Origin: Rhizaria sp. SCN 62-66
Lineage: Eukaryota
Direction of reading: 5' to 3'
Assembly (NCBI GenBank): GCA_001724265.1
Contig: MEDY01000239.1
Coordinates: 1-53,149, forward strand
DNA: 53,149 nt
Shown here one piece after another: positions 11,769 to 49,482 of the stretch. The notes under the pieces were generated by a model. The model had not been told where the DNA came from and made no database searches. It saw only the letters and a list, made by a program, of their open reading frames with translations. The position numbers and the translations under genes are program-made. Position 1 is the first letter of the stretch. Each line of letters begins with the position of its first letter.

Positions 11769-14700
11769 TTAGATTTTCGGCAACGGCACCGGCTGAATAC
11801 GCTGCATCATAGCATGCAGACGCTCGCTCTCGCCGCCCACACCAACAACATCATCATCGTCCTTATTGTGGCTCGAGCGAGTGTCGGTGTTGGCGCTGCT
11901 GTTTTGACGCGCTTTGCGATAGCGCGCGCGCGCGGCGGCGGCGTTGGCCGCAACCGTGTCCGCGGCGCGGGCGAAAGCGCGCGCAGCCAAGGGGGTGGCG
12001 AGGCCGTCGGCAGAAGGGGCGCAGAGCCCGGACCAGCTGACGGACTCGGCGGCCGCGAGGGCGGCGGCGGTGAGCGCGACGGGAGGCGTCGGAACCACCG
12101 AGTCGCCGGCGTTCACAGACGCCGCCTTGCGAGCGCTCGGGCCCGTCGTCGTATTGCTGTTGTTGCTCGCATCAGCACCTTTGTGCGCGTGTGTGAGCGC
12201 GCGTGCAAGCTCTTTCCCCAAGGGCGGAATGATCGGGTCAACAATGTCAGTACCACGACGCTCGTGTTTGTCACTGCTCATACTCAGAGCAGCGTAAGTC
12301 GAGTCACTGGTTCCCGCGCTCGCGTTGCCGCCCGCAATCGCAACATTACCGCTCTTGTCATGCTGTTGCTTGCTCTCGCTCTCGAAGTTAAGCCGCATCG
12401 CGAAGTCTAGCCGCGTGCGCACGGCGGCGACGAGCGCGGGCACAGCGACGGGCTCGGCCCTGGCGAGCAGCAGCAGCAGTTGGCCCACGCGGTCGCGCAG
12501 CGCCTGCGGGTAGTGGAACGGGGACAGCAGAGGCGTCACGGCCGCAGCGATTACCGTCGCCGCCGTCGCCCCCACCCCGGCCCCGCTGGCGCTGGCGCTG
12601 GCGATGTACGCGGTGCTGCTATGAGAGCTGTCGGTGTGCGTGTTGGCGATGGGAAGCGAGAGCAGCTCGGGCAGCAGCGCGGCTTGCGTAAACGCGACCA
12701 CGACGCCGGCAATAAGTTTGGCCGCCAGAGTCACGCTACTCGCACTCGTGCTGCTGTAAGTCTGATGACCAGCAGTGCTGGTGCCGATGTAAGTGTCGGT
12801 GAACCGCGCGCGCGCCTCGGCCAGCACCGCCAACAGCAGCGGCAGCGCCTCGGCGGCGAAGCGGCCGGCCAGGAAGCGCGGCGCGGCTTCGAGTGCGCAT
12901 GATAGCGCGGGCAGCGCGGCCGCCGTCGCGGGGGTCACGGGCCGGTGCGTCAGCGGCAGAAGCAGTGAGGGCCAAAGAGACGCGAGGAGAGGCAGCAGGC
13001 GGCGGTCCCAGCGGGAGGGTAAGGGGGTACTTACATCATGCGTCTGAGATGCACCGTCGTCGTCATAATCGTCATCACTGTCACTCTCATCACTCTCACT
13101 GCCATCACCACTCTCGCTATGATGAGCGTTGTTGTCGTCGCTGTCAGTGACTTCCTCCACATAGGCGGATGAAGTGCTGAGGTCCTTAGCAGATGTCTTT
13201 CCGCCCATATTCTTCTCATCGTCAGCACCAGCACCAACATCGGCGGTATAATCCTTCGTGCTGGCAGCATCATTCGCACTCACGACCCACTCTTCGTCGC
13301 CATACTCCATCGTCGAAAAGGCATTCTTGGACTTCTTCGCCCCCGCGGCCTTCCTCTCCTCCTCCGTCATCACCACCCCGCCGCCCAGGCCGCCGCTGCC
13401 GCCGCTGCTGTCAGTGCTGGCGTACGCCCGCAGCGCCGGCGCGGCGCGGCCCGCCGCGGCGAGCGCGGTGACAACAAGGCGCGCGGTGGCGAGTGCAGCG
13501 ACGACGACGGCGGGCACTGGCCACGCGAGGAAGGGCTGCACGTGCGAGAGCACACGCACCAGTACGGCCTCCTCCAGCGACGCGCCGGGGTCTTCGTCGT
13601 CGTCGCCGTCGTTCGCCACGCCATCAGCGTCCGCGTCAGCGGCAGCGTCGGCGGTAGCGGCAGCTTCCTCCGCAGCAGCGGCATCGAGCCCTTGCTTGCG
13701 CAGTTGCCTGATCTTTCGCTTGCGCGCCGCCGCTTTGTCAGCAGCGATGATGCCTTCGAGGCTTCCGTCCAGATCGGCGTCCTTTGCCGTCGAGCGCGAC
13801 TTGCGCTGGGTCTTCGCCTTGGAAAGCGCGTGCTTCGCTGCCCCCAACCCGCCCATCTTGACACCATCCATAGGATCCACCTCCCCTTCCTCGTCATCGC
13901 CGTCTAAAGCACTGCTCTTACTCTTACTCTGAGTCTTGCGCTTGCCTTGAGTACCGCGGATCTGCTTCGACTCCGCGAGCAGCGCCCACCACTTCTGCGC
14001 GATGTCTGCCGCGCTGGCGCCGCCGCGCTGCGCCGAGCTCAGCAGCGCGGACTTGGCGCGCGCGGTCGCGGCGGCGCGGCTGTGCGTCGCGGCCGAGGCG
14101 GCCAGCGCGGCGGCCGCGGCGGCGGCGGGGGGCAGCGCAGGCAGCGCGAGGAGCAGCGCGGGCTGCTCCGAGACGGCACCGGCAGTGGCGCAAACTGTAC
14201 CAGAGCTGGCAGCGTTCCTGCCGTTGAGAGGCGCATCCTCGTGCCACGGCCACAGAGGGCTAGCAGCGCTAGAGCCGGCGTCAGTGAAACCACTAACACG
14301 CGACTCGCCACCATCGCTCGCGACGGTAGTCCCTGTCTTCGCAGCAGCAGCGGAGAGCTGGAGTTGTTGTTGCTGCTGCGCGTGCTCAATCGCGTTGATG
14401 TGCGTGATCTTGCCGCCCTGGAGTGTAAGTGCCTTGGGTTGCAGACTAAGTACCCTGGGATTAGCCTCCCCGGGCGCTGCGTGGGCCCGCTCAACCTCGT
14501 CCACAGCCACGACAACCGCGGCACTTAAACCAGTGTAAGTAGCTGCGGAGGCGCCGCTGCCGCCCGTGGAGAGACACGGCACAGCAGTGGCGGACGTTGC
14601 GGCAGTAGCGGTGGCGGCGTTCGCGTCAGCCGTGGCCGCTGCGGAGGCCGACACGTACGGAATGCACACGACCCACTTAGACTCGTGTAAGGGGTTGCCG

Positions 14701-17700
14701 GCATCAGCGCCATTGCTGTGCTTGCTGCTGTTGTTGCCGCTGCGGGCGCTGTTGAGATTGCTGCTCTTGGAGACTGTAAGCACGCGCCGGTACACAGCCC
14801 TTACAATCGCGCTGACAAGGTCTAAGTACACCAGCACACCCTCAGACGCACTCACATTCACGCTAGCGTTCGGACTGGAGCTCGCTGTCGCCGCCGCCGC
14901 TGCGACGGCCGCCGCGGTGCTCATGCTCTCCAGCACCTCTCCCAACAGATCTTTGAGCGCGGGCACCAACTCTGGCCCCGCGGCAGCCAGGTCCAGCGCG
15001 GCCCGCAGCAGCCGCGGCAGCGCCGCCGCCGCCGTGGCCGCCGTGGCCGCCGCGGCAACCGCGGTGGCGGCCGCGGCGGAGGCGGCGCGCCAGTCGGTCA
15101 GGGCGCGCGCCAGCGACACAAACGCGCCGGCGCCGCTGTTCGTCGCGACAACGCTAGTGCCCGTGCTCGTGTCTGCGGTGGAGGGCGAGGAGGCGGATTG
15201 GCTTTGCTGCTGCTGCGAAGACGCGGCTTGGCTTTGCGCGTAGGCCCTCATGGCGTTTAGGTAGGCAGCGCGCACTTTGACGAGCGCTAGCTGTACGGCA
15301 CCATCAAAGTCATCCTGCTGTTGTTGCTGCTGCTGTTGTTGCTCAATGCTCGCCGAAGTCAGGCCGCGACGACCTAACTTCCTGACCTGACCAGCAACGT
15401 GCGCGACGAGGTAGTCAGCGTTGTGCGCAACGAGCAGGTCCGTGCGGCCCTGGGGCGCACCGGAGCGCAGCGCGAGGCGGGCCAGCGCGGCGGCCGCGGC
15501 GGCGCGCGGCGCCGGGTGCGGCGACGCCAGGCGCGGCAGCGCGAGGGGCAGGACGCGGGCCAGCAACGCGGGCGGCAGCGCGGACGCAGAGAGCGGGGCC
15601 AGACACGAGGCCGCGGAGGCGACGAGGCGCAGCGCGTGCGTGTGCAGCAGCAGCAGCCGATGCTGGCGGAGCGACGCCGGGGGCAGCGCCTGCGCCTGTG
15701 GCTGTGTCTGCAGTGCGGGGGCGAGGAGGTCGCTCGCGGAGGCGCCGCTGTTGATGGCCCGGAGGAGAGTGAGTGCGGCGACGGCCGACGCGGGCGTGTG
15801 CGCAGGCAGGTGCCACAGGGAGGACTGGGTCAGGGTCTGCAGCGCTGTACTTAGACTGGATGTGAGTACCTCGGAGGGCGGACTCGTGGGGTCGAGGCAC
15901 CAAGGGTACTCATGCTGCTCAAAGTCGTTGGCGACATCGTTGTCACTGTCGCTGTCGTCGTCGCTGTGGTCGCCGCGGCTGCTATCCTCAGTCGCCGTGT
16001 CAGCAAATTCAATGCCGATGTTGGTGTTGGCGATCATGTTGGCGTTGAGATCATCAAACGGCGCAGTGAAATCAGTGTTGATGTAGTTGAGGTCGTTGTT
16101 ATAGGCATTGTAACTGAACTCGGGATTATTAGCACTTGCGGTTGCAGCAGCCGCCTCAGCGCGAGGGTTCTCTTTGCTGCTCGTAAGACTGCGAGCCGAG
16201 GGGATTTGCGGAGGCAGCAGTGTAAACAGCGATGTAAGGGGCGCGGCGTGACTTCCGACCGCGGAATCGGCAAACTCGCCTGCCACCGCGGCCACAGCGG
16301 CCACAGACACACTATGGTGACCGTCATTGCGGTTCGCAGTCGTGTCATAGTTGCCGTTAGTGAGAGAGAGCAAGAGAGAGTTAAGGCTGTTGTTGCGATC
16401 GACGGCAACCTCCGCAAGCACCGCTGCTGCTTCATCTTCCTCATTAGCGTCTAAGATGGTGCCCACACCGACACTGGATGTTAGTGCTTCCTCAGAGATC
16501 TGCCCCCACTCCTGCTGCACACGCACACCCAGCACGAGCTGGTTCAATACAACGACTGATTCTGACGCGTAGCCGTCGGCCTCAGCGGCGGCCACGGCGG
16601 CGGCCACGGCAGCGCTCGCGGCACTGCCGCTGCCGCTGTGACCGTGGGCGGCGGCCGCGGCGGCCGAGCGGCTGCGCAAGCCGTGGCTGCCGCTGCCGTT
16701 CGCGGAGATGCCCATCGACTCGATCAAAGTCAGGGCGCGCTCGGACAAACCGGGGGGGAGCTGTCGGCTAGAGGTGGAGTTAGAGCTATGATTCCCACTT
16801 GCAGTAACATTCGGAGCGGCTGAGCTGGAGCTGGAGCTGGAGATAATCCCTGCGCCAGAGCTGGTGGTGACGTCGATGACAGTGCCAGAGCCATTATCAG
16901 GATCAACATTGCTGCTGTTGCTGCTGCTCTGCGTGAACGTAAGCGCCTAAGGTCGAATCGCACTCGCGTCGCCGGTCCCTCTTACGCCGGCGGCGTCCGC
17001 GGGGGTACTTAGATCCCCCGCAAGCCCGCTGCTGACGATGGCGCCCCGGGTCGCAACGACCGTGGCCACGCCCGTAGTCAGCGCAACCTCGGCCCAGCCG
17101 GCCACCACGGCCGCGGCGCCGGCGCCCGCCCAGGCAGCCAGCGCGGTGGGCAGCAACAGCAGCAGCGCGGCGGCCTCGGCGTCGGCCGCCAGCGCGGGCG
17201 CCAGGGCCGGGAACGGCGGCAGCGGCAGCTCGTAGTCGGCGTCGGCAGCACCCTCACTGTTACCGTTCCTGCGGGCGCTATCAGGGGTGTCGGAGGGGAC
17301 GGAGCGGTCGAAAGTTAGGCCGCCCCTCACCCCCAGCCCACCGCTCGCACCGGAGTTATTGGAGCCCGTGGCGCCTGTGCCCGTCGCCGTCGTGCCCGCG
17401 GCCGAGGAAATGAGCCCCGGTGAGACTGAGCCTGGCGCCAGTGCGAGCAGCTGTGACAGCGCGCGCACCAGCGCAGGGAACGCAGACAGCAGAGTGTAGG
17501 CGAGCGCGTTGCCGTACGCCTCGCGCCGCAGCAGGTGGTCTTCCCGATCTTGCTCATCGGTGGTATTGCCGCTGCTGCTGCTGCTGTTGCGGTGACGACG
17601 GCCTACCTTCCCGACGCGGCTTAACTTGGTCCTGCCGAGCATGGCGATGCTGGCGAGCAGCAGCCGCAGCGCCCATGCCTGTTTGGCGGCCGACGCCGTG

Positions 17701-20700
17701 GCGTTGGCGTGCGTCAGCAGCGCGGGCAGCGCGAGCAGGCGCCGCAGTGTGCGCTGCTGCAGGGCCTTCGTCACAACGGAGCCGTAGAGCGGGGGCGTGA
17801 GCGCAGAGTGCAAGTACCGCAGGCGCATGGGGGTACTTAAATCCATGTAAGGGGCAGGGACACTCTCAGACTGGCTATGAGTGCGACAAGTACGTTTCTT
17901 GCTTAATTTGCGCACGAGCGCCGCCGTGCCGTCTAAGGGGGTACTTAGATCCCGCAGCGCCAGCGTTGCAGCCCTCGCAGCTGCGCTCGCAGCGCCCACA
18001 CCGACGCAGACACTTGAGCCAGAACCAGAGCCAGAGCCAGTCGCGATAGAGTTAGAAGAGCCAGTGTCAGCAGCGGCGGCGGACAACAGGGCGTCCAATA
18101 AGGTAAGCCGCACTGCGCCCGCAGCTGCCTCAGCCTCAGCCCCAGTCTCCGCCTCCGCCCCTTCTTCATCATCACCAGTCTCTCCAACAGCATCAGCGCC
18201 AGCGCCAGTGTGAGTGCGCGTGGTCGCGACTGCGGCGGGGACAGCGACGGGGGAGAGGTAGAGACAGGAGACGGACCGCAGCAGCGTCGCGGCCGCGGCC
18301 ACGAGCGCGAGCCGCGACAGTGGGTGCGAGCTGCCGGCGACGACGACGCCCGCGCTGCCGCCGGCCACTGCGGCGGCGTCGCCCGCGGCATCGCCACTAC
18401 CATGGTCGCCGCTACTCGAGGCGTCTTGGCAGTCGGCCAGAGGGGCGAAGACGGGCGCGCAAAGACTGCCGATGCGCGCCGCCGTCTCGGCCAGCCAGCG
18501 CGGGGAGCGGGTTCCGAAAAAGTGCCCCTGCTGCTCGCGGTCGGCGCGCTGCTGCTCGAGCAGAGCCAGCGCGCGCGCGCGCAGCGGCGGCGGCAGCGCG
18601 TCGAGCGACTGGCCGCCGAAGGGCAGGGGCGGCTGCAGGAAGTTGCTGATGTCGGCCTTGCGGGCGAGGGTTGAGGTCAGCCAGGTTAGGACCCGGGCAC
18701 TTGAATCCAACGACGCCACATCGGTCTTGTCATCAGGCCTGAGGTTATTGCTTACAGCCGTGCCCGGCTCCGGTTGCTGTTGTTGCTCAGCAGCAGCAGA
18801 GTCGGCAACAGACACAGCAACAGAAGCAGAAGCGGAGACAGCTTTCGCTTTGGCAAACAGCGAGGACAAGCCAGCAGGCAGCGCGGCGTTAACATTCACA
18901 CTTGCATCTACGTTGTCTGCGATATCGTTATTGCTGGCGTCTTTGTCGCTCTCGGTGCTGCTGGACGGCATAACTTCCTCGCCACGCGGCTTATCTTCCA
19001 CGCCGCCGCCGCGCCCCCACTGCCTCGGCTTGAGCGTCAGCGGGTCAACGCATATCAGCGCCAGGGCGGCGTCGCCGAGGCAGAAGGCCACGGAGGCAGT
19101 GAACAGCGCCAGCACGCGCCTGTACAGCCGAGACGTGACACTGGGACTCAAGCTAGCAGCGGTGCTTACATTGCCGCCGCCGAGACTATTGCTGGCAGTA
19201 TGAGGAGTATTGCTACCGCTGCTGGTGCAGAGCACGTGAGCGCAGCCGCCGACGACGCCGGGCAGTAGCGAAGCCCACACCTCGGCGCCCAGGGCGACGA
19301 GCCCGGCCTCCTGGCCCCAGCGCCGCAGCAACAGTGAGGACCCGGGGGCGGGGCCGCGGACCGCGGGCGAGAGGTACAGGGCGGCGGCCGCGGCCGCAAG
19401 AGAGCTGGAGCTAGAGCCAGAGCCAGTTTCTGTGCCAGAGCCGGAGCTAGAGCTCGACTGAGACTTGGTATTACTCTTGTTGTTGTTCTTGTAGTTGTAG
19501 TTGTTGCTGGCAGCGGCAGCAATGGCGGCGGCGGCCTTGGTGGCAGCGTAGACCGCAGTCACAGACAGGGGCACACCGGCACGCGCATTCGCATTCGCAT
19601 TCGCACTGATGGCACTATTGCCGCTGTTGTTTGTGCTCATGTGAGTGTCGGTGATGTAGGTGCAGTCCAGGGAAGGTAAAATACGCAGCAGTTGCCTCCT
19701 TTGCAGTCCGGACATGGCAAGCGCGGCACTAAGAGGGTGCTTAGACAGAGCGTTCACACCGTAAGCCAGAGCTTCGGCGTCGACCGTGTTGCCGTTGTTG
19801 CTTGCATCGCTCATCAAGTACTTAGCCTGGTGGGGGTACTTAGACGCCGCCGACGCGAGGACCGCGGGGTAAGCAGCCAGCCGAGTCGCCATGGCATTCT
19901 CGAGCTTGGAGAAAACGAAGGCGCCGACGCTGTTAGCTGCAGAGCCAGACGCCTTGTTGTGAGCGTTCGCGTCTGTGTTATTAGATGCGCGTACTTTGCG
20001 TTGAGCGTTCTTGCCGAGCGATGTAAGTACATCGAGTGTAAGGGGGTCCGACGCCGTTTCATCAAGGCCAGCCACCACCTCAAGCCAGCCCTGCGATTGT
20101 GCCAGCGACCGAGACTTTGACGGCTGTTGCGCCTTTTGCTGCTTCAGACTCACGGTGACGGCCTCCGACATAGCCAGCACGACCCCCGCGCTGTGCCGCA
20201 AGTGCGGCTGCTCGCGCCCCAGCAAGGCCCTTAGACAGCTAAGGGTGTCGGCCGCCAGCAGCCGCACCCGCATCGGCACAGCGCCGCCTCCGGTCGCAGC
20301 CCCGGGCGCAGGCGCACTCGAGGCCTGCTGCTGCTGCTGTTGCTGTGGCAGCTGCTGCGAGGGGGCGACTCCCTTGATGAGGGAGAGGCAATGCGCAACC
20401 GCGAATCCAATAGAGACGCGCAAGGGCGCTGACGTAAGGGTCAGCGCGAGTAAGGGGGAGTCCGTGGCCGATGTGATGAGCAACAGGTACTTGAAGCAGC
20501 GCAGGGACGCAAGGTACACCGACTCGTGTGTTCCAGGCGTCATCGTCGCATTCGCACTCACGCTTGCGCTGTCCGCTTGAGTGGGGCTGCTGCTGTTGAA
20601 GGGCGGCAGTGTGCTGGGCTGCAAGAAATCAATCAAAAAGCGGAACAAAACCGAGAAAATGGGGTCACGCGTGAATGCCAGCTGTTTGAGCACCGAGCCA

Positions 20701-21397
20701 CTGCCGTTACTATCCCCAGAGACAGAGCCAGAGCCAGCGGCAGAGCTTGTACTGCTATAATTGTTATTATTGTTGTTGTTGACTGTGGTGGAGAGGAAAA
20801 ACGCAAACGCGGCCGCGAGCGCCTCGAGCGCGGCGGCGACAACCGCGGGCACGAGCAGCGGCGGCAGCAGCGCGCGGTCCAGCAACACGCGCGACACAGT
20901 GCCGAACAACGGGTCGAAGAGGGAGGCCGCTTCGGGGGGCGGCAGAAGCAGCAGCGATTCAGCCTCGGCTGCAGTCATAGCGCCACCACTGGCACTGGCG
21001 CTCGCAGTTGCAGTTGCAGCTGCTTTGGCACGAGGTGCGAGCGGCGGCGGCGCCGTTGCGGCGAACTGGAAGTACCCCGCGATCGCGGTGAGGGCCTCCG
21101 TGGCCGCGTGGGCGAAGGAGGTGCTCACGTTGAGCCAGTGGCGCTGCTGCAGCGCGCGCTCCTGTGCCTGCTCCTGCGCGCTCATCACCACGCTGATGCT
21201 CACGCCGCTGCTGCCAGCGCTCGGACTGCTCGCATTGGCCCCGGCGTTAGCGCTGCTAGTGGTGGTGTTGTTGTTGTTGATATTGTTATTGGCCATGTGG
21301 AAGGCTGTTGCGGCAGTGCGCAGCTAGAGATACTGTTGCGACAGCGAGTGGAGCGACTGAGAGATAAACTGGGCAGCCACTGAGGTCAACTCGAGAC

Positions 21398-21441
<44 letters not shown>

Positions 21442-21542
21442 GGCTGCGGCTGCTGCTGAGGGCGGGCAGACGAGGACGAGGGGGCAAAGGGAAATGTGAC
21501 GCCCGGGGAAGCGCCAGCTGGGCGCTGCGGGGTGCCGTTCAT
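11769..21542 (-). CDS. TTI1: TELO2-interacting protein 1 (TTT complex); one 3257-codon frame containing two in-frame TAG (21326-21324, 16949-16947)
   Basis: TTI1-like motifs in the expected order: IGFAVAHCL, WASLLPGVV, RSPRWLAETAARI, then after the second TAG, DLLVAHNADYLVAHV, LLPLLASLWPSL, FLAGRFAAEALPLL. The three listed ORFs share one frame (gaps of 27 and 198 nt with no other stop). Stop TAA. Confidence 0.85.
17932..17949. repeat. Most perfect copy of the dispersed hairpin motif TCTAAG-GGGGTA-CTTAGA
   Basis: 6-bp inverted repeat with a 6-nt loop; about 15 full or partial relatives across the window (see findings). Confidence 0.7.
21400..21456 (-). repeat. (CAG)n poly-Gln tract at the TTI1 N-terminus
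   Basis: CTG run on the + strand, encoding QQQPQPQQQ...Q. Confidence 0.9.
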
Positions 21543-21970
21543 GCTCGAGTCGCGTCACGCGCAGAGGGGCGGGAGCGCGCGAGAGAGCGAGGGCGTTGAT
21601 GTGATACGCGGAGGCTCAGGTCGAGAAGTGAAATCTGCTGCTGCCCAATGAGATAGACAAAGGGTTAAAGAATATAACCCGGTTAGAAGTTTAGACACTC
21701 AGCTTTAAAGCCTTGCTATAAAAACGAGGCACTGAACAGAGTTCAGGGGATGCGACGAGATGAGTCCGGACGTGCGATAGCGCACGAGCGCGGGTAGTGT
21801 CCAGTTCGGGAAGTCGAGGGTTGAAGGAGGTGAAGTAAAAAGGGAGTATTGAAGGGATTACAAAATTTCACGAAATCCTATTAAAGAGAAATACTCACAT
21901 CAGTACTTTCTATATTGTGTCAAAATTATAGACTTATTTACGATCAAGACAGCGTGAGTGCTTACGTTTT

Positions 21971-23166
21971 ATGATCGGCCCCGCACGTCAGGCGCCACTG
22001 CCTGCACCTCCGCTGCCACCCACCGTTTCATCGGCCTCGGCATCTTCGGCGCACTCTTCCGCTTTGCGCGCCGCTGACCCACATGCCCCGCATCGCATCA
22101 CCCTTGTTGCCCGCGGCGCACCGCGCGGCATGACGGCCGTGCCCCAGGACGAGGAGGAAGAGGAGGAGGACGGCAGTGCTCGCTCGGCACGGGCCCCAGT
22201 TCCCAACCTGAAGCTCAAAGGCATCGACAGTACGTCTTCTATCACGCGCTAATTAAGGCACCTCGAATTTAATTTGAAGTGTGCGTTCGTCCACTTTCTT
22301 GTCCATCCGCTCACCAGAATTTTGTCATTTTCCCGTGTTTTGTACGTTGTTAAACCTGCGTAGTTTTGAAGCAACCTGGCGTAGACGTGCACACCAAGGC
22401 CATCATCTTCTTCCACACGCTGCCGATGCCGCTGCTCGCACAGATCACCGACACCTACGGCGTCTACACCACAACGGCTCTGACAACAGGCCTCGTGCTC
22501 TTTGCGCCCGTCTACCTCCTTTTCGCCCTCGCCAAGGTGTACCTGGCGTTCCACCACTACCTGCTGCCGACCGCGCTCGCGCTGCTGTCCTCCGACGCTG
22601 CCGCGGCCGCCGCCGCCTCCCCGGCGCCGCCGCTGCCCGCCGCGCTGGCCCCGGTGCCCGCGCTGCTCGTGATCACGCTGCTGTGTGACGGCGCCGCCGC
22701 GCTGCTGCTGGGCATCGCCGCGGGCAAGCGCTGGCGCGCCGGCGTCGCGCTCGCCGTCGCCGCCGCCGCGGTCGCGCTCACGGTTACCCCGGCCCCGGCC
22801 GCCGCGTTCGCGGCCAGCGGCGGCCAGTTCGCGCACCTTGGGTACGCTGCGCACGCCCTGCTGTGGCCCGCAGCCGCGGCCGTGGCGGGGGCGGCGGCGC
22901 TGGCGGCCAGCCAGGCGCACCGCGCGGTGACCGTGAGCAGCAGCGACTGCGACGGCGGCTGCGGCGCGGGCTGCCGGTGCGTGCGGGGCGGGGCGGCGCA
23001 CCCGGCGGTCACTATGGAGGAGGCGGGGGCGGCCGCGGTGGCGGAGACCGTGCGGCGCGCCGACGCGCGGTTCGAGGAGGAGCAGCGCGAGCGCGAGGAG
23101 GAGCAGCAGCGGCGCGAGCGGCAGGCCCGCGGGGTCGACGACGAAGACGATGATTACGGAATCTGA
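21971..23166 (+). CDS. Hypothetical multi-pass membrane protein; exons 21971-22229 and 22364-23166
   Basis: The phase-1 intron 22230-22363 (GTACGT...GTAG) joins LKGID/ILKQPG. Several hydrophobic segments, a CDGGCGAGCRC cluster and a Glu/Arg-rich tail; stop TGA. The start could alternatively be the ATG at 22130. Confidence 0.7.
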
Positions 23167-29848: not shown

Positions 29849-30203
29849 CTTCGCTTAAGCAGCCAAGTGCTGTTCAAGCTGGTTTACAGGGATCATATTT
29901 GAGTTATATAGAAAACAAGGGAGATTTAGCTTCAAACTAAGTTACATAATACGAATACATACTTTTTATTTGGTTAACTCTTTTCGATCTTGTACTAATC
30001 ACGCGCTTCTGTGGTCAGGACAGCTTCTTGCCCATTTGCCCGCCATTGCGAGAGGTGAGGACAAAATATCGAGCGTTTGACTTGCACATGCAATATCTCA
30101 ATAGAATGATCGTCGGTAATTCCTAAACTTGACCATGCTCTAAATCAACCACTTTTGTCATCATTTCCCTTTTTATACTATTTCCTGTTGCAGGTGTCGG
30201 CGT

Positions 30204-38519: not shown

Positions 38520-38718
38520 TGTTATCACTTTGCAAGCATGTGCATACATTACGTGGTGTGTATTACGCGAATAATCAATCGCGATGAGATACATGACTAT
38601 ATAGCCAACAAGTTATTCTAGATAAGCGTTAAGATAGTAAGATCAAGCAATACATAAAAGCTTTGCCATTCACATTCAAGGCGTCATGCTGCACATACCA
38701 ACAGTCATGACACAACGT

Positions 38719-40323
38719 TTAATAGTCTTCCTCGGAGTACTGCACGAAGTGCAGCGTGGGGTCCTGCCACGACTCCTGCTGCGTCTTCTTGTTGCGCCAG
38801 CCGGGCAGCCCGCGCGAGTCGACCTGCGTGACCCAGTACTTGCGGAACTCGTAGGGCACGGGGAACGGCTTGTGGTGGGCCAGTGCGCGGAAGAAGGAAA
38901 GGGACATCGCGGGGTCGAATAAGTTAAGCCGCCGGACAAGCTCGCGGGCCTTCGCACGCATGTGGGGGTCAGACGATCTATACGAGATATAAAAAAAATG
39001 CAAGATGAGACATACAAGTTAGTGAGGTAAATAATGACTACACCAAAAAAATCTATTTTTCACGCTCAATATGAACAAGTTCAAATGCGCAATTGTGCAT
39101 TTGTGCGGCGTGTGATGCACGTGTTACGTACTTAAGGAGCGCGGCCGAGTGCCGCATCAGCCCCGCATAGACCTCGGCCTTGTCCTCCTCGATCGCGGCC
39201 ATCGAGTACCGGTTAAGGAACGCTGTGCCGACGCCGATGTCGACCTCGCTGTGCGGCGAGATGGTGGCGGTGCCGTCGCGGTCCTGGGCGCCGCCGTCGC
39301 CGTAGCGGAACCCGGGCGGGTTGAGGCAGTGCCACAGCGGGTCCGTGCCCACCGACTCAGGGTTGCGGCCGCAGTCCGAGGCCGAGTCGAGCGGCCGCAG
39401 CCAGAGGCGGACGGCGGCGGAGCGATGCGCGGCCAGCACGGGGATCAACGGGACCGGGAAGGCCAGCGACTCGGCGAGGGGGACGCCGGGGGCCGCGGGG
39501 GTGACGGCGAGGGACACGGTTAGCGTGCTTGTCGTCGCCGTCTCCACAGTTCCAGTCGCGCTCGCATTCGCAGCGGGGGAGAGACTGCTGGACTCTGAAG
39601 GCGCCGCGGTGGCAGCGGCGGCGTTTGCGTGGTCAGTTTGAGTGGTGTCCGGACCCGCCGCGCTGTTACCGCCAGTGTCCGCCGGGGGCAGAGTGGGGCT
39701 GAGGGGGCTCACAGTCGGGGAGGCTGGGGTCGCGGGCACTGTGAGAGCCAGCGAGTGCAGCTCTGAGTGACCGTGGGCGTGACTGTGGGAGTGACTGTGC
39801 GAGGTGCTCACAGTCGCGGCCTGACCGTGGGCAGCAGCAGCAGGAGCGCGAGTGCGACTCTGAGAGTTGCTAGAGCGGCGTTGAGTTGCGACGTCAGAGT
39901 TCGTCATTTGCTGCAGCTGTTGCTGTTGCTGCTGTTGCGGCTGCGGTTGCAGAGGCATGGGCTCCGTTTCAGTCTCAATCTCGACGGTATATTCAATGGG
40001 AGTGCTTAAATGAGCATGTGAGTTGTGCGTGTTGTGGTTTAAGTACCCTTGCGAAACTAAGTAGTTCTCCGCATCCGCGGCCGCCGACTGAGTGGCGGCC
40101 GCGATCGCTGCCGCCGCGATGTAGGCCGCGTCCTCCTCATCGTCCTCGCTGTTGATGCCCGCGTCGTCGCTCATAAAAGCCGCCTTGTTGCGGCCGACGA
40201 CGCGGCCGCCAGCCCCGCTGTTTGCCGCTGCCGCTGCCGCTGCTGTTGGGATGCCTGTGGCGTTGACGCGGCCACCGACGACAACATTGCCGTGACTCAT
40301 GTTTGCACGCGTGCTCGCATTGC

Positions 40324-40357
<34 letters not shown>

Positions 40358-42831
40358 GCGAGTGCCTACAGTCATCTGCGCCACGGGCGGGGGCGACGAC
40401 AACTGACCTTGAGGGCGACTGCTCCGACTGCTGCGAGTTGAGTTCCTGTGAGAGTTCGCAGTGGCAGTGGCCGCCGCGTCGTTATCCCCGTCTTTCTCCC
40501 ACACATCGCCCTCGTCAGCCCAGGCCGGGTGACCGCGGGCGCCGGCAGCTGAGTGATGAGAGTGGGGAGAAGCAGCCGCGACGTTGCGACTACCGCTCGT
40601 CACTGGGGGCTGAGGCGGCGGCGGCAGAGGCGTGGTGCGGCTCTGCTTTGGCGGAGAAGCTGCAGTCTCCGCAGCGGGAGCAAGAGCCGCGTCTCCACTC
40701 TGTGCGCCATCTCCAGCTTTCGAGCTGCGCGGCCGCTGACTCGTCCTCGCACCGGTGCTGCGCGGTGCAACAGCTTCAGCAGAAACAGCTGCATCTTCAC
40801 CCTTCGCAGCGGCCGCGTCAGGCTTGTCAGGCTTGGTGCTGGAGGTGCCGCTTTTAGCAGCGTTGCCCTGACTGTAGATACGGTCATTGCGCGCCACGTC
40901 GCGCCTGTACCACCGACTGGGCTGCGCGAGGCCCTTGAGGTGCATCGACACAGTGACATTGTTCGTCGCCACATTCTCAGCAGTGCGGTCAACATCAGCG
41001 GTCATGACGTTCTCTGTGTCCAACGTGTTGGGATACAGCACGGCCTGATTTTGAATCGCTACAGTCATGAACTTAGACGCCTGACCGTTTGCGTCTCCCT
41101 GTCGCTGTAGATGTGCGGCGACGGCGGCCTGGCTTTGCGCCAGCGCGGCCTGACTTTGCGCCTGCGCCGTGGCGGCCTGGCCCACCATGAACCGCGCGAA
41201 GTCAGGCACGCGCCCCGGCGGGTTGGCCGTGCGTGCGTTGCACGCCGCAGTGGCGTACGCAAACAACGGGTCCGGCAGCGTGAGCGCCGGCTCGGTCGCA
41301 GTCGCCGAGCTCGTGTTGACCGGGGGAGCGAAGCCCCGCCAGTCATCAGTCGCGCTGCTCGCGTCATCGTATTCGTCACCATCGTCATTGTTGTTGCTGT
41401 CGTCTTTGCCCGTCTCGCCCTTCTGCAGTTGCCGCATGCCCTTGAGCATGGCCAGGATCTTGTCGTCGAACATGTGGAAAAACTCGTGGTGGAACACTGA
41501 CTGGAGGTAGTACACGATCTCGGGCTTGCAGTCCAGGTAGAGCGTGCCCGTCTCAACCACGGGCACGGCCTTGCGCGCCTGGCCCTTGTACGCCAGCCCC
41601 TCGGCCAGCACGATGCGGCGCAGGCGTGCGCGGCGGAGGAAACTGGGCGGGTACAGGCCCAGCTCCACGCACAGGAAGGGCTGGAAGAAGAGCGCCGAGG
41701 CCAGACAGGGCGGCCGGCCCTCGAGGCTGTTGCCGTAGACTTCGTCGTTGACCGAGGTGGACTGCAGCAGACACAGTGTCACGCCGGCTGCGTGGCAAAC
41801 CGCCGCAGCGTCGCGCAAGTACCTAAAGAGTACGCATAGAACAACAATTTATGAGATGAGTGAGATTAAATTTTGTCACAGATAAAAACGAAACTGTTTA
41901 ATGGAAGATGAGCGTTTCAAGACTTTTAAGTCATGGTATTTGTTCTCAAGACATACCTCGGCTCGGCGGGCAAGCCCCAGAAGTCTGCGTAGGTGCCCAA
42001 GATCGCCGGCCTCGCCAGAGTGGTCTGCCCCGTGAGCACGGAGAAGTAGTACGGCCGGCCCGACGATCCCGTGAGCTGGCGCCACGCAAACGCCGCGATG
42101 TCCACCGTTACGTGGTTTCCGGGTCGCAGCCCGCGCTCCTGGTAGATCGACCGCAGCGGCGGCGGCGCCTGCGCGTCCGCCTTGCGCCCGCCGCTGCTCG
42201 CTGACTCGGCGTGCAGGGCGCGCACTTTGCCGGTGCGCGGGTCCACCGCGGCTCCCGCACGCGCGCCGGCGGGGATGCGGGCCGGCGCGCGCGCCTGCTC
42301 GCCGCCCCGGCCGCGCGCGGCGGCGGCGGCTGCGATCTGGCCCAGCTCGACGTCGCTGATAGCCGTCTCGTCGTCTTCGTAGTAGCGGTTGCCATACTCG
42401 TCGACGTAGCCGTAGCCGTCGTCGTCGTAGCCCTCGCCGTAGTCGCCGGCGGCGGCGGAGAGGTGGCTGCCGGCGTTGCTGGCGCCGGCGCGCGACTGCT
42501 GCTGCTTCTTGGTGGAGCGGGGCGGCAGCACTTGCGCCAGCCGCCGCAGCTGCTGCCGCTGCTGGTGCTGCTGGTTGGACAGCCGCGGGTAGCCATGCTC
42601 GTCGTAGTCGTAGTACGGTCCCGTAAGCCCGCGGTGACCGCGGCTCTGGCCGTGCCGGCGCCCGCGCGCGTAGGCGGGATCGTTGAGGTCGAAGTCAAGC
42701 CCCCGGTCGCCGCCGTTGCGAGACGGGCTCGAGGACGGCGATGACGACGGGGTGACGTTCGGAGAGCATGTCGGCGTGCAGGTGAAGAGCGACGTGCAAC
42801 AGGGAGGGCAACAGCTCATGCTACTGCCCAT
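38719..42831 (-). CDS. WW - HEXXH zinc metallopeptidase-like - WW protein with a predicted N-acylated start; exons 42831-41957, 41822-39132, 38977-38719
   Basis: Two phase-2 GT-AG introns (41956-41823, 39131-38978) join three ORFs. MGSSMSCCPPCC start; WW-like AWRQLTGSSGRPYYFSVLTGQTTLARP; FHHEFFHMFD ... WHCLNPPGFRYGDGG ... FLNRYSMAAIEEDKAEVYAGLM; second WW-like YWVTQVDSRGLPGWRNKKTQQESWQDP. Stop TAA. Confidence 0.78.
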
Positions 42832-43291
42832 GGCCGTGACGCTCGGTGCGCAGAGCCGGTCGAGGCAAAGGTCAGAGCGAAGGGCAACGTGTGTAGGGAG
42901 GCCAGCAAGATAGAGAAGGTTGGCCAGACTTTTGAAGGAGTACACCGAGGTAGGGCAGTGAAGTGAGAGGGTATAAAAAGGGCGATACGCAGATCACATA
43001 TATTAAACACTGTAAATCTCTGTTAATGTGCGCTTGACAGATGATTCGTAGGACGCCGATCTGGGTTTAGAATCATATCACCCCCCTCTGCGCGGACCAC
43101 AACGGGACAGCAAGCCGCAACGGCAAGAGGATTCAGTTGAATGTACAGCCATCATCATCCATGCAATAGCAATGATATTCAACTCTGTATATCTAAGCGT
43201 GACCGTGTTTATTTCTTTTCAAAGAGATCGCACTAATTCGCGTTTGTGTTTCGCTGTTGTTCCTTTTGTGTTTTTCATATCGTGCAGGGGG

Positions 43292-46200
43292 ATGTCTCAC
43301 CAACAGCACGGCTCCCGCCCTGGTCCTGGCGCCACAAGCTCTGCGTCTGGCCCTGGTTCAGCTTCCCCGCCTCTGATTCCGGCATCACCCATGCTCGTTC
43401 CCGGCGGTGACCCGAAGCGCCGCCGTCTCGCCACCGAGAACCCTCTGACTCTGTCCCCGCCCCTCGGCGGCTCCCGGTCAGACGCGGCGCTCGGTGCGAA
43501 CCCCAGCCGCTTTGCGCTGGGCGACTCCCCCGTCATCGGCAAACACCAGTCGCGCTCCGCCTCGCTTGTCTCTCTTACCGAGAGCGCCACTGGCAGCTCC
43601 AGCTCGCTCGCTCAGGCTTCGGCGGCCATTGGCACTGCCGCCACAAGTGCCTTCGCCACGGACACGTTCGCGCCGTCGAAGGACACTGCCATGCCGCTCT
43701 GGTGCCGCGGCCTGCTCCCCGCGTCCTCCGCGACCCCCACGAGCGCCAGCACGCTTACCGCGGCGCCGCTGACTACGGCCGCGACGGGCGCGGCGCTCAG
43801 CGCGGCGCTCAACGGTCAGCTGTCTCAGTCCGCGCTCAACGCGCTGACGCTGCCAGCGGCGTCTTTGGACCACCTCCTGTACGACCTGCCCTACATGTTA
43901 TCTTTCCACGACTATCTCGCGCTGCTGCCGCTTGACATCCGCAGGGCCTTCCTTGCCTCGCTGCCCCCCGCCGTCGCAGCCGCGCTCTCCGCTCCCGCCG
44001 CTGCGGCCTCTGCTGCTGCGGCCTCTGCGGCTGCTGCGGCCGGCACAACCACTTCACAGTCGCAGTTGCTGTCGCAGTCGCCGTTCCCGGTCTCGGCCTG
44101 CCCCGGCGAGGCCGCCCCGCCGCCGCAGCGCCCCGGCGTCGGCCCCGCCCCGGCCGCCTGCTTCACCGAGCGCGACGAGTGGGCCGCTACCTCCACCGCC
44201 CCCGCAGCTGCCACGAGTACCTCCTCAGCGATGACTGGCATCCGCGCTACTGGGATCCGCGCTAGCTCGACTGCGATGAGCGTCGCCAGCGCCGGCGCCG
44301 CGGGGGCGAGCAGCGCGAACGCGAGCTCTCTCGCGCTGGCGTTGTCGACAGCGGACGGCGACCCTTACACGCTCTGGCACAGCTACTTAGACTACGTAAG
44401 CACCTTCCGCACCGCCACGGCCAAGGGCTTCTACAGCAAGCACAAGGGGGAGAACTGGTACGCTGAGCGTTACGCCGGCAAACTGCCCGCCACGGGCACC
44501 GCCGTCGTCGACTCGCTGTCCAAGGCTCTCAGCAACATCAGCAGCTCGAGCGCGAACGCCGCCGCGGCTGGCTCGAGTGTGGGCGCGGTCACTGCGGTGA
44601 TGTCGGCGTGCGCCGTTGCTCTCACGCCCGCCGCCGTTGCCACCGCGCGCGCGCACAAGGCCTGGCTGGCAGCCTTCAACGCCAAAGACCCCTACCTCTC
44701 CCCCACGCCCGCGTATGTCAGTCGCTCCAGCGGCGCCAAGGGTACTCACACCGCTGTCAGTGCCCCCGCGGCGCGCGCGTGGGTTGCCGTGCGCGGCGTG
44801 CCCCCGCACGCGAGCGACGCCGCCGTGACGGCGACGCTCGGCGGGCTGCCGGGCTTTGTGCGGCTCTGGCTCGCAGCGCCGTGCATCAACGCGCAGCTCA
44901 CGCGCACCGTGTACGTGCTATTCAGTAGCCACGGCTCCGCGGCGGCTGCGGTCAGCGTGATCAACCGCGCGGGCGCGACCGCCAGCAAGGCGCACGCGCA
45001 CGGCAACTCCGCGAACAACGCCACTCCTGGCAACAACACCAACAACAACAACAATGGCGCAGAGTCGGCTGGTAGTGAGGCCACAGCCAACAACACACAC
45101 AGCTCTGACGACTCCGAGGGCGGCCTAACTTCGGACGGCGGCCTGACGATCCAGTGGCCGGCCCGCCCCCCCTTGCCGCCGCCGCCGCCGCCGCCGCGCG
45201 CACTGAGCTACATGCTGACGCACCAGCTCGCACCCATGCCTGTGCTGGCACCGGTGCCCACGGTGCCGCTCACGGCCTCGCTCGCCACCGCCGGGCCCGG
45301 GATGACCGTGGGCAGCACGAGTACGGGGCCCGCGTCATGTGTTCCGCCGTGTCTGGTGGGCCCCGATGCGTACTCCGCGGGACCCGTGCCCGCGTGGACG
45401 CTCGCTGACCCCGCCGTCGTGGCGGCCGATGCGGCCGTGGCGCTCGCGCTGGCGGCCGCGCTGGACAAGGCTAAGGGGGTCGAGCCGGGACATTTACACA
45501 ATGCGCTCAAGGAGAACGCAGTGCTGCGGAGTCTTAGTGCCGTGAAGAGCGATCTAAGTAGCGCTGCTAAGGCGAGTGAGGTTGTGGGCACTGTCATCAC
45601 GAAGGCACTGAGTAGCACCAACAACAACACTGCTTTAGATAGCAATGACGCTGATGTTGCTGCATGCGTGTACATCGTCACAAGCACCGTCTCGTACTTG
45701 CTGCACGTGCACAGCTACGCGTTTTACCTCGGCCGCCAGTACTTACACCAGCAGGAGGCCCTTACATGCGTCGGCGAGCAACACCCCTATCACCCCCTTA
45801 CATCCACCGCCGGCGGCACTTACACCTGCGTCAATGCGACCAATAAAAACAGAGCTCTGCCTATGGCTGACGACGACGCTGACAACAGCAATGCCGACAT
45901 TAGTCGCGCGAGCAACAGCGCATTCGCGAGCGCTCCTGTCCCTTTCCTCACCAGTATCAGCGCCGCCCCCGGTTCTAGCTCTGGCTCCGGCTCCAGCTCC
46001 AGCAGCTCCAGCGTTGACGCCGCGGAGGCTGCGGCCAGCGCCGCCGCTGCGACCCAGGCCGCCATCAAGTGCCTCCAGGGTCGCCACCCGGCTCTGCTGC
46101 TCAGCGCACATTCGCAGGCACAGTTGGACTCGCCGAGCAGCTTACAGTTGCCGTCGCAGTTGCCGTCGCAGTGGCAGTGGCCGCCGCTGCTGTCGCCGGC

Positions 46201-46820
46201 CTTGTCGGCCGCCACGCTTGCCGACGCCGTCGCAGCCGCCGCCACCGCGAGCGCCGCCACTCTCTTCGCGGGCGGCGGCGCCGGCGCCGGCGCGACCAAG
46301 GCCACCACGGCGGCGGCCGCCGCTGCCGCGCTCAGCGTGCTGCCCGGCGCCGGGTCTAAGGGGTACTTACACCGCTACCGCACCGCCGCCGCCGCCGCCA
46401 CGGCCGCTGCCCGCACCTCCAGTCTAAGTGCCCCCGGTGTAAGTGCTGTCGCGGCGCCGTCGCCGATCGACGTCATGCCCCCCCTGGATGCCGACGTGGC
46501 GCACTGGGTGCTCAGTTGGGTCTCCCGGGCCGTCGCGGCCAAGTCAAGGACGCGCTTCCAGTGCGTGCTGTGCGCCAAAATGCTGACTTCAGCGGTCTTC
46601 GCGGTCAGGCACGTGCTCACCGTGCACGCCGACTGCGCCGCCGCGGTCGGCGACGAGGCCCTCGCGGCGGCCACGGTCGTGGCCTATATTAAGGACGGCG
46701 AGCCAGGCGCGGCTAAACTTAAGGGCGATGACGCTGCTGCTGTCGCGTTCTCTGCACCGAGGCCCATTCTGTCACTCTTCCCTCTTCCTTTGCTCAACAA
46801 CAGCTCTGGCGCTGGTTATG

Positions 46821-46851
<31 letters not shown>

Positions 46852-47206
46852 CTCAAGCGCTGCGTCTGCGTTCAACTCTGGGTTTTACTTCAAGAGCAAG
46901 GCTGAGAAGCACATCAGGCACGAATGGGCTCTGGCTGTCACGAACGCCGCCTCTGCCGCCGCTGCCGCCGCCTTTGCTGCCGCTGCCGCTGCGAACGCTC
47001 CCCCTAGCGTTGCTGCAGCTGCTTCCGTTGCCTCTGGCGCCAACCGCAGCGCTGGCGCTAGCGCTGGCACCGCTGCTGCCGCCGCCAGCGGGAGCAGCAA
47101 CGTGGCACCTGTGCTCATCGTGGCCTCGGAGACCGCGGCCGCGCTGGCGGCCGAAATCTCCAAGGCAGACGCCGCCGCCGCTGCCGCCGAGGCCGCTCTC
47201 GCCGCC

Positions 47207-47238
<32 letters not shown>

Positions 47239-47621
47239 CGAGGACGAGAAGGAAGAGGAAAGCGGCAAGAGCAAGTACAAGAAGGGCAAGAAACACGCGT
47301 GGACCCGCGAGGTTGCGGTCGACGACCAGGTACGGCAATTTGAAACAAATGATTGACATTTTTAGATTTTATCAAAGATAATCAAACATATATGTGCTCG
47401 CCATGTTTTGACTCGTTATCTGAACTTACTTTCTCAATTTCGCGTTCCTTTGTTTTGTGTTGTCTGCATCTTAGGACGGCGCTGCGAGCGTTAGCAGTGC
47501 GGATGCTGCGGCCGCCGCGCGCGCCGCCGCCGCCGTTGCCGCCTCACTCGTATCTCTCACGAGCGGCACCAAGGCCAGCCTCAGCAGCGCTGTGACCGTT
47601 GATGATGCCGCCGCCGCCGAG

Positions 47622-47674
<53 letters not shown>

Positions 47675-47831
47675 TGCCGCTGCCGCCAGCGCCAACACCG
47701 CGGCCGGCAGCAAGGCCGTCGTGGTTGGCGGCCGCAAGGCTGTGTGTTATGAGGGCGTCTGCGAGCCCGTGGCGGCCAGCGTCGAGGCGTGGGGGCGCGT
47801 CGCCAAGAAGGCGCTTGTGTCATACACCTAA
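43292..47831 (+). CDS. SRRT: SERRATE/ARS2 RNA-processing factor; exons 43292-47329 and 47475-47831
   Basis: ARS2-like motifs in order: MLSFHDYL, FYSKHKGENWYAERY, RRM (VRGVPP...PGFVRLWLA...RTVYVLF), YLLHVHSYAFY, zinc finger FQCVLCAKMLTSAVFAVRHVLTVH. Phase-0 intron 47330-47474; stop TAA. An acceptor-like site just upstream of the ATG may indicate an earlier exon. Confidence 0.85.
47622..47686 (+). repeat. (GCC)n poly-Ala tract in the last ARS2 exon
   Basis: Long GCC run followed by GCT/GCC variants. Confidence 0.9.
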
Positions 47832-48168
47832 GCTTGTGTCCTTCATCGAAGCTGCGTCCTCTGTCGTTTGCGTGGGCAATCTTTGGATTAAGTGTGGTGA
47901 GTTTGTTTCATCATTTGTTTATTGTGCTATATAGTTAACGTTTATGTTTCTGACAATACAATGTGCAACTTTCAATACAAGTCAGCTTTTCATACACTAA
48001 AAGTAGACGTTTGTATAGAACTAGGTAACCCAAGAGTCGTAACTCCTTGCTGGAAATAATTGCCATAAACCTGCCGATGTACGCTCATGACACGGCATGA
48101 CTGAGTCTGACTGGTCATCCGAGTGTTGATTAGCACGACGTTTTATGAAGTATACGCATCGACTCACC

Positions 48169-49482
48169 TCACTCCTCATCGAAGTACATACCCGCGTCGC
48201 CACCAGCAGCCCAGTCACCGCTGCCGCCCTCGTCGTCCTCCTGCTCCTCCTGCTGGCCCCGCAGCACCGCCGCCGCGACCTCGGCCTCGGACATCTCCAG
48301 CACGCGCGCCTGCGCGCGCCGCAGCTGCAACTCCCCATCCTCGCCGTCGACAGCAGGCTCAGCATACACGCCACCACCGCCGCTGCCGCGAGCCGAGTCA
48401 CCGGAACCCGCGCCCGCGTCGGGCAGAGACGCCTTGTGCGCAGCGCGCATGGCCGCAATGCGGGCCTTGGCTTCCTCGTCATCGCTGCCACTCTCACTGC
48501 CACTCAAGTAGGCCTCGTCCCCGTTCGCGTCGACATCGATGTGCCTCTTGTCTCTATCAGCGCCGGTGCCGCGGCTGTTGTCAATGTTCGCGTCGTCGTC
48601 GACCTCGTTCGTAACGCCGTCGTCGTAGTACATGTCGACATCTTCGTCGTCGTCGCCGCCATTCTGATCATTGGCGCTGATGCTTGCGAAGTGACTCCGC
48701 TTCACTGGGGCATCATTGTCATTCTCATCGCCGTCACCGTCGTCATCGTCGTCGCCCTCGTTCACGCCGCCGCCGCTGTCGCTGGCGTCATCACCGCGCA
48801 GCCGCTTGCGCCTGTTCTTCTTCTTCATCGCCCGCGCGGCCCGCGCCACGGCCTCCGCGCGCTCCTTCTCCTGCCGCACCCGCTCCAGCCGCTCGGCGAC
48901 GCTCTCCGCGGCCTTGCCGCCGCCCGCCGCGCCCTCGGCGAGCCGCCGCACGTGATGCGCAATGCGCGCGCGGACGTCGGTCACGGAGGCGCGGCGCACG
49001 TGCATGCTCACGCCCAGCGCTTTCTGGTGCTTGCGGCCGTTGATGTGCGCCAGGTAAGCCTGCGAGTCGGAGAGGATGACGTCGCAGACGGCGCAGTGGA
49101 AGCCCGCGCGCGTGCCCTTGGTCACCGCGAGGGTCTTGCCGACATTAGCGTAGAGGTCCAGGCGCGCGTCGCGAGCCGACAGCAGCCCGCGCGGGGCGGC
49201 ACTGGCGGCGCCGGCGGCATTGCCCGCAGCCGTGGCGGACTAGGCCTCTTGCTGTTGGGCGGCGGCGAGGTACTGGGAGGTGTCCCAGGTGCGGCGGCCG
49301 ATGTTGTCGACAAACTACAGTGTGGGATTAACCGAAAAAGTGAAATCAGGAAGTAAGAAAGAATGGATGAGACTGGCGTGCGCTGAGTAATACGTAAGAG
49401 ATGAGGAGTGAAGAGCTTGGAACAGGGGCATGTAAAGCGACTGATGACGAGGGACCGTAATTACCTTTTGTGGCTGAGCCAT
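48169..49482 (-). CDS. ZMAT2: Zinc finger matrin-type protein 2 (Snu23); exons 49482-49465 and 49314-48169; in-frame TAG at 49242-49240
   Basis: Spliced product MAQPQK/FVDNIGRRTWDTSQYL...QQQEA*SATA...RGLLSARDARLDLYANVGKTLAV...GFHCAVCDVILSDSQAYLAHINGRKHQKALGVSMHVRRASVTDV follows ZMAT2 (RRKWDxxEY; LLxxRDxxVDL; GYYCxVCD; HINGKKHQ). Stop TGA. Confidence 0.9.

Follow-up and report, generated by a model that had tools for sequence, protein, structure and literature searches.

Does the eukaryote represented by contig MEDY01000239.1 read UAG as an amino acid while still ending its genes with UAA and UGA? The window analyzed here is the whole 53,149-base contig (~61% GC), which carries eukaryotic genes on both strands. 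The question arises from six in-frame TAG codons that interrupt three of these genes: a PolQ/HELQ (Hel308-type) helicase, a very long open reading frame (ORF) resembling TTI1, and a gene for ZMAT2/Snu23. An initial inspection of the letters, hereafter the sequence-only reading, had proposed that UAG alone has become a sense codon and that UAA and UGA remain stops. We find this to be the best explanation and probably the correct one: the introns of this organism look different from the TAG sites, the interrupted ORFs are not products of chance, three of the TAGs recur outside the window's own assembly, and none of 15 gene ends is a TAG. The decoding itself is a step that we infer.

All six TAGs were found where they had been placed, at 34230, 34740 and 36063 on the forward strand and at 21326, 16949 and 49242 on the reverse strand. 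As had been claimed, the same frame continues past each of them, and with TAG read through it stays open for 2791 codons in the helicase (30144..38519, forward strand) and 3261 codons in the TTI1-like ORF (11769..21554, reverse strand). The absence of in-frame TAA and TGA likewise held when 14 gene models comprising 13,175 codons were counted, with 6 TAG (0.46 per 1000 codons), 0 TAA and 0 TGA; the off-frames of the same models contain 158 TAG, 190 TAA and 502 TGA. For the helicase alone, the counts of TAG/TAA/TGA are 3/0/0 in the coding frame and 22/19/54 and 30/26/68 in the other two frames. Since the ORFs are far too long and their off-frames are rich in stops, the long read-through frames are not chance. 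The genes that contain TAG are long and show weak bias; highly biased genes have none.

Nor did any gene prove to end in TAG. The sample of terminators is small, 15 gene ends of which 7 are TGA and 8 TAA; it consists of 13 models (7 TGA, 6 TAA), exon 2 of a gene at 39–41.8 kb (TAA) and centrin (TAA). If a standard-code organism used TAG for about one-fifth of its stops, an assumed figure, the probability of finding none in 15 would be ~0.035. The gene at 39–41.8 kb was considered as a candidate with a TAG terminator and rejected, as three TAGs lie inside its intron and a further exon follows. The inventory of the sequence-only reading was correct for the six in-frame sites and overlooked four further TAGs in stop-to-stop frames, all of them intronic (Table 1).

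The weight of the case is functional, not statistical, because four stops, three of them in the helicase and the fourth in ZMAT2, would ruin proteins that in all other respects keep perfect reading frames. In the helicase, Pfam detects DEAD (aa 563–665) and Helicase_C (aa 1833–1906, both in the numbering of the stop-to-stop frame), and the best PDB matches are the helicase domain of DNA polymerase theta and Hel308. The RecA2 motifs matched a profile of eight PolQ/Hel308 helicases with an hhalign probability of 98.9, the sole match obtained by hhalign. Because 34230 and 34740 fall between DEAD and Helicase_C, no product could hold both halves if TAG were a stop. Beyond 36063, the eight-helicase profile, used in a one-sequence search, gave weak co-linear matches to the winged-helix motif (independent E-value 5e-4) and to a later segment (0.055), and a phmmer search of this part against PDB gave no match. 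When the last 999 residues were searched, only a motif of ~80 aa was matched in other proteins, and none of the sites 34230, 34740 and 36063 could be aligned with a relative. The architecture of a PolQ/HELQ/Hel308 (Ski2-like) enzyme is thus represented by both lobes, DEAD and Helicase_C, with weaker matches for the winged-helix and C-terminal parts, and the protein carries very long low-complexity inserts. The GC contents of its first, second and third codon positions over 30144..38519 are 0.60, 0.57 and 0.61, that is, there is almost no third-position bias, whereas the third-position value (GC3) of neighboring genes is 0.71–0.85. The gene with the least codon bias is also the one that carries three of the six in-frame TAGs.

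The ZMAT2/Snu23 gene provides the clearest view of a single site. Its product matches the Pfam families zf-met and zf-C2H2_jaz, has 1301 homologues at E ≤ 0.001, and shows the hallmarks of the family, an N-terminal RRxWD..Y motif and a U1-type C2H2 zinc finger. The closest relative, P0163, is 62% identical, and a member of its cluster was named SNU23 by its source. The predicted spliced N-terminus, MAQPQK|FVDNIGRRTWD, matches the start of P0163, MSASSGPQKFVDNIGRRTWD (alignment A1), and thereby supports the intron model; the last three bases of this intron constitute the apparent in-frame TAG at 49317..49315. The TAG at 49242 lies 15 residues past the W of RRTWD. No in-frame ATG occurs between it and the zinc finger, the next one being 79 codons on, so that with TAG as a stop the ZMAT2 product would have 31 residues. 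The part downstream of 49242 has a GC3 of 0.91, and local GC around the site is 70–90%.

The TTI1-like ORF is less readily assigned. Its match to Pfam TTI1 (PF21547; aa 2006–2061, E 7.9e-5) is below threshold at 22.9 bits against a cutoff of 27, and a PDB search returned no relative. GC3 is 0.75 over the whole ORF. At 16949, GC3 is 0.84 in the 90 codons before the TAG and 0.71 in the 90 codons after it, in the same phase; the sequence upstream has no recognizable motif, the only match downstream is the sub-threshold one to TTI1, and the next in-frame ATG is 78 codons on. At 21326, GC3 is 0.81 before and 0.87 after, again in the same phase, compared with spacers of 0.35–0.55 overall GC, and there is no motif on either side. 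The earlier statement that five of the six sites have family motifs on both sides therefore holds clearly for three (34230, 34740 and 49242) and weakly for a fourth (36063); it does not extend to 16949 and 21326.

To characterize real introns of this organism, four supported introns served as the reference. They are 150–218 nt long, have 36–46% GC and start with GTACGT or GTAATT (Table 1). The exon that follows the intron at 38978..39131 (38719..38977, reverse strand) is in a different frame, is GC-rich and ends in TAA. GTACGT opens three of the four introns, and one of them has a yeast-like ACTAAC branch site. The six TAG sites lie in exon-like sequence that carries none of the signals of the supported introns, a doubtful 39-nt option at 16949 being the one exception, and a motif scan of the helicase coding strand found no candidate intron of the supported type. 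At 34230 there is no GT..AG option of a length divisible by three with a real 5′ splice signal.

Table 1. Genes, exons, introns and TAG codons of the window, with positions on the forward-strand numbering.
Feature	Position	Strand	Details
PolQ/HELQ (Hel308-type) helicase	30204..38519	+	2771 codons from first ATG; ends TGA
In-frame TAG 1 of helicase	34230..34232	+	aa 1363; between the two RecA-like lobes
In-frame TAG 2 of helicase	34740..34742	+	aa 1533; between the two RecA-like lobes
In-frame TAG 3 of helicase	36063..36065	+	aa 1974; after motif VI; 817 open codons follow
TTI1-like very long ORF	11769..21542	−	3257 codons from ATG 21542; ends TAA
In-frame TAG, middle of TTI1-like ORF	16947..16949	−	aa 1536
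In-frame TAG near start of TTI1-like ORF	21324..21326	−	72 codons after first ATG
ZMAT2 exon 1	49465..49482	−	ATG plus 5 codons
ZMAT2 intron	49315..49464	−	150 nt; GTAATT...CTGTAG; GC 0.46
ZMAT2/Snu23 exon 2	48169..49314	−	RRTWD motif, U1-type zinc finger, acidic tail; ends TGA
In-frame TAG of ZMAT2	49240..49242	−	between RRTWD..Y and the LLxxR..LDL / zinc-finger part
Four intronic TAGs, outside the finding	49317 (ZMAT2); three others		the three others lie at the end of the first-exon frame of the 39–41.8 kb gene
~900-codon protein with 2nd exon (39–41.8 kb gene)	38719..41848	−	no Pfam family
Intron of 39–41.8 kb gene	38978..39131	−	154 nt; GTACGT, ACTAAC, ...TATAG; GC 0.36
Centrin	51720..52632	+	at least 3 exons
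Centrin intron 1	52000..52153	+	154 nt; GTACGT...CAG; GC 0.36
Centrin intron 2	52273..52490	+	218 nt; GTACGT...CAG; GC 0.45
ATG4 peptidase (Peptidase_C54)			cut off at left end of window
Ribosomal protein uS7	4111..4689	−	
HD-domain hydrolase			
1952-codon ORF			without any family
SLX9			

Three of the TAGs recur in other samples. Contigs of four runs were compared over 30144..50000, a stretch outside which 16949 and 21326 lie; runs with small shares of it (X6–X9) were left aside. Two of the four, X2 and X3, come with different study, year and label entries and agree over this region in contigs, lengths and depths, which suggests a single data set under two records. As their contigs are identical, we counted them as a single DNA data set, whose sample differs from the probable source of the window. 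Its 1043-nt contig corresponds to 33870..34912 with 0 differences and keeps both 34230 and 34740, and another contig, 49220..50000, again with 0 differences, keeps 49242 ~20 nt from the contig end. A third run, X5, is a polyA metatranscriptome from another study, labeled activated sludge. The strain that it samples diverges slightly from that of the window: there are single-base differences, the helicase ORF carries an in-frame insertion of 6 nt, and the one indel seen outside a gene, at 48163, is 5 nt. A 308-nt contig of this RNA library covers 49041..49339 unchanged and keeps the TAG at 49242; it also contains 25 nt of the ZMAT2 intron and 9 unmatched letters. The contigs compared include no RNA contig over 34230 or 34740, no listed piece over 36063 and no RNA joint for either of the control introns (38978..39131 and 49315..49464). 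The remaining run, X11, contributed only pieces of 23–26 nt. Bioreactor and wastewater metagenome are the labels of the runs in which most of the helicase stretch is found.

Existing gene calls bear the imprint of the same codons. P0024 is an 802-aa call that starts just after the TAG at 36063 and is on record from 6 contigs, and P0162 is a 318-aa call after the TAG at 49242, on record from 2 contigs, and its cluster has a 318-aa member from one more source. Standard gene callers have thus already split genes at TAG, and under a UAG sense code the proteome of this organism would be mis-annotated in public collections.

Several observations weigh against UAG being a sense codon, and we consider them here together with the explanations that they would favor. 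Under the standard code, the TAGs could be true premature stops, either as nonsense alleles, as signs of genes in decay or as variants that became fixed in the population of a reactor. Because most codons here end in G or C, TAG is favored among random nonsense changes: 60–63% of the single-base nonsense changes possible from this codon usage yield TAG, the probability of six out of six is ~0.05, and the "TAG only" pattern is accordingly weaker than the naive (1/3)^6. Furthermore, each of the six sites falls in sequence that is poorly conserved or of low complexity, with none inside a Pfam-matched domain, and TAG is rare, 11 of the 14 models having none. The flat GC3 of the helicase (0.61) may reflect relaxed constraint. 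Such decay is difficult to reconcile with three TAGs in a 2771-codon ORF free of TAA, TGA and frameshifts, when its off-frames hold, by our tally, 44–73 TAA plus TGA each, or with a ZMAT2/Snu23 that would be cut to 31 residues and yet retains its high GC3 downstream. The same TAGs are present in another sample, 49242 also in a diverged strain whose only helicase-ORF indel is 6 nt and in frame, and none of the 15 gene ends is a TAG. We consider this explanation quite unlikely. The standard code could also be preserved if the TAGs were removed or changed in RNA, either through editing or because they belong to in-frame introns that are very short or unconventional. The organism does splice, two of its supported introns end in TAG, and the ZMAT2 intron is itself an in-frame intron free of TAA and TGA. 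At 16949, a 39-nt in-frame GTAAGA...CCTTAG ends exactly at the TAG, and this is a further point against UAG decoding; it is a doubtful option, which we judge to be probably too short for an intron of this organism. The other frame-keeping GT..TAG options begin with a weak GTG, and at 49242 the sole option is 34 nt, which is not a multiple of three. Compared with the 150–218 nt and 36–46% GC of supported introns, the TAG sites look like exons, reaching 70–90% GC at 49242, and it is unlikely that six of six introns would all be multiples of three. The RNA-library contig across 49242 keeps the TAG with no gap or change. This contig runs 25 nt into the ZMAT2 intron, and for that reason may represent pre-mRNA or carried-over DNA rather than mature mRNA, so that its weight for UAG decoding is reduced. 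Removal or alteration in RNA strikes us as very unlikely.

It is also conceivable that UAG has a dual meaning, being sense or efficiently read through inside genes and terminating some of them. An incomplete reassignment would accord with so few in-frame TAGs, and with only 15 gene ends, TAG terminators at a frequency of 10–15% could have been missed by chance. None of the 15 is a TAG, however, and a gene with three such sites would have to be decoded almost completely at every one of them. Programmed readthrough has a stimulatory context of the UAG-CARYYA type. The hexamers downstream of the six TAGs (CAATAC, TCGCTT, AGCCAG, CTGCGC, GCGCTT and TCCGCC) all differ, indicating no shared readthrough context, and only that of 34230 (CAATAC) comes near this motif. 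A dual meaning is, in our estimation, unlikely. The interpretation of UAG as a sense codon faces further difficulties of its own. A scan of the window found no tRNA gene. A metagenome scan yielded only two close loci, L001, from the same organism and reaching only the left end of the window, and L002, a 3.5-kb stretch of an 88% relative; two extra ORFs of L001 and a 526-aa ORF of L002 have no TAG within their likely coding part. The site at 21326 has a bearing on the question only if ATG 21542 is the start codon in use; another possible start, an ATG 10 codons past this TAG, makes this the least certain of the six. Finally, the only site that can be aligned falls in a variable column, so that no amino acid can be assigned from it. 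Weighing all of this, we favor the view that UAG is a sense codon and that UAA and UGA are stops.

Under this interpretation, UAG would be translated as an amino acid throughout the nuclear genes, as a rare sense codon at ~0.5 per 1000 codons here, and UAA and UGA would be the sole terminators. Decoding would require a CUA-anticodon tRNA, which could most simply be derived from tRNA-Gln(CUG), tRNA-Glu(CUC) or tRNA-Leu(CAA), together with an eRF1 that would have lost its affinity for UAG. The alignable site is 49242. In alignment A1, 7 of 13 homologues, the two closest among them, have E at the position of the TAG. When the column was read at a fixed offset from the conserved W in 105 motif-bearing homologues (44 of 149 examined lacked the motif and were left out), it contained E 22, R 13, A 11, Q 11, D 8, G 8, K 8 and others. 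TAG would account for ~1% of glutamine codons (6 versus 532), ~1.3% of glutamate codons (6 versus 468) or ~0.5% of leucine codons (6 versus 1136). We lean toward Gln or Glu. A more specific scenario is that we are seeing an independent, early-stage UAG-only reassignment in a deep eukaryotic lineage of wastewater reactors, in which UAG has gone as a terminator and is only starting to return as sense, confined to weakly expressed genes. We put this forward tentatively, as an account that may well prove wrong; if true, it would offer a natural snapshot of stop codon capture.

The ribosomal protein uS7 gives an indication of the organism's relatives. It is matched at 98–100% in other assemblies (P0043, L001), and the next relatives are at 87%, 77%, 75% and 74% identity; all named matches, from apicomplexans, Vitrella, a dinoflagellate, a cryptophyte, a plant and an oxymonad, are at 66–71%, with Medicago at 66%. 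In a FastTree phylogeny of 120 listed matches, which include one named metamonad and no named ciliate or green alga, the window organism falls in a clade of 11 (support 0.98) to 19 (0.92) sequences containing no named taxon. Searches with the HD-domain protein and with uS7, cluster comparisons, this tree and pairwise identities did not assign the organism to a named group. One member of this clade, P0045, is filed under a dinoflagellate transcriptome (EukProt). Its identity to a true dinoflagellate uS7 is just 73%, and that dinoflagellate sequence shares 80–86% with those of apicomplexans and Vitrella. On this ground we regard P0045 as probably a culture contaminant of that data set; as such it may offer a handle on a cultivable relative. 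The sole N of the window, at 4380, lies in the uS7 gene and represents more than a single base: ILA-X-SRAG in the window corresponds to ILAEAVSRAG in P0043 and L001, so that the window's version is two residues shorter. Comparison of L001 220..700 with window 4690..4908 showed that uS7 is identical and that the sequence just upstream of the start codon differs, a difference suggesting that L001 comes from another strain or haplotype of the organism, present in a different metagenome.

Other features of the window and its surroundings were recorded in passing. The N-terminal part of ATG4, which lies beyond the left end of the window on L001 (3705..6059, reverse strand), has more than 40 consecutive Asn, and long runs of Asn, Gln, Ala and Ser are common throughout the large proteins here. 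Close to its N-terminus the ~900-codon protein of 38719..41848 contains HEFFH, an HExxH-like motif, and a WW-like segment, GLPGWRNKKTQQESWQDP, is encoded in the last exon. For centrin, a 3′ splice site (..ccgcag) precedes 51720, and the ATG-bearing first coding exon was not located. GC periodicity of the coding type was observed at 7500–8100, and candidate reverse-strand introns at 9365..9528 and 9874..10086 are among several within 7500..10200, where one or more multi-exon genes are probably present.

This case can be compared with the known systems described in PMC11687900, PMC5304391 and PMC6394959. UAA and UAG almost always change meaning together. According to PMC11687900 and PMC5304391, UAG is uncoupled from UAA in the rhizarian exLh (Sainouroidea; UAG = Leu), in the fornicate Iotanema spirale (UAG = Gln) and in several phyllopharyngean ciliates (UAG = Leu or Gln), and one oligohymenophorean ciliate reads UAG as Glu and UAA as Lys. 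The sequence-only reading had named the first three of these as the known UAG-only cases, a list that proved incomplete, as PMC11687900 adds the green alga Scotinosphaera (UAG = Ser) and Protocruzia tuzeti (UAG = Gln). Outside ciliates, then, these sources give only a rhizarian, a fornicate and a green alga (PMC11687900, PMC5304391). In literature listings and the openings of abstracts, such a code was not reported for any non-ciliate eukaryote from wastewater or known through metagenomes. We therefore view the window as a probable new case of this rare UAG-only change, one that would come from a GC-rich, apparently free-living organism recurring in reactor metagenomes. Given the rarity of UAG here, it would show the first steps of stop codon capture, and a further case would test whether the eRF1 change or the gain of a tRNA comes first.

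Iotanema spirale resembles the window organism in that only UAG occurs in frame and UAA and UGA are the sole terminators, and in that UAG is a minority codon, at ~8% of Gln codons (PMC5304391), compared with at most ~1% here if UAG is Gln (6 versus 532). exLh, a non-ciliate, has likewise reassigned UAG alone and terminates its genes with UAA and UGA (PMC5304391). Both contain far more of the codon, with 204 UAG in 126 genes of Iotanema and 384 in 71 genes of exLh (PMC5304391) compared with 6 in 14 here, a disparity that also tells against reassignment in the window; in exLh, half of the ribosomal-protein genes have UAG (PMC5304391), and uS7 here has none. UAG is Leu in exLh, and nothing here points to Leu. 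In contrast to Iotanema, the genome sampled here has ~61% GC, and its uS7 is apart from the one named metamonad in the match list. Iotanema is a gut endobiont, whereas the window organism comes from wastewater and bioreactor metagenomes. Introns of 150–218 nt and 61% GC do not, in our view, look ciliate-like. The uncoupling of UAG from UAA is nevertheless shared with phyllopharyngean ciliates and Protocruzia tuzeti as well as with Scotinosphaera (PMC11687900). Condylostoma, Parduczia, Blastocrithidia and Amoebophrya sp. ex Karlodinium veneficum also have standard stops inside coding sequence. A context-dependent code was considered on this account and set aside as a poor fit: such codes alter two or three stop codons, one of which keeps its role in termination (PMC6394959, PMC5304391), whereas here a single stop codon, TAG, is affected and it ends none of the 15 genes.

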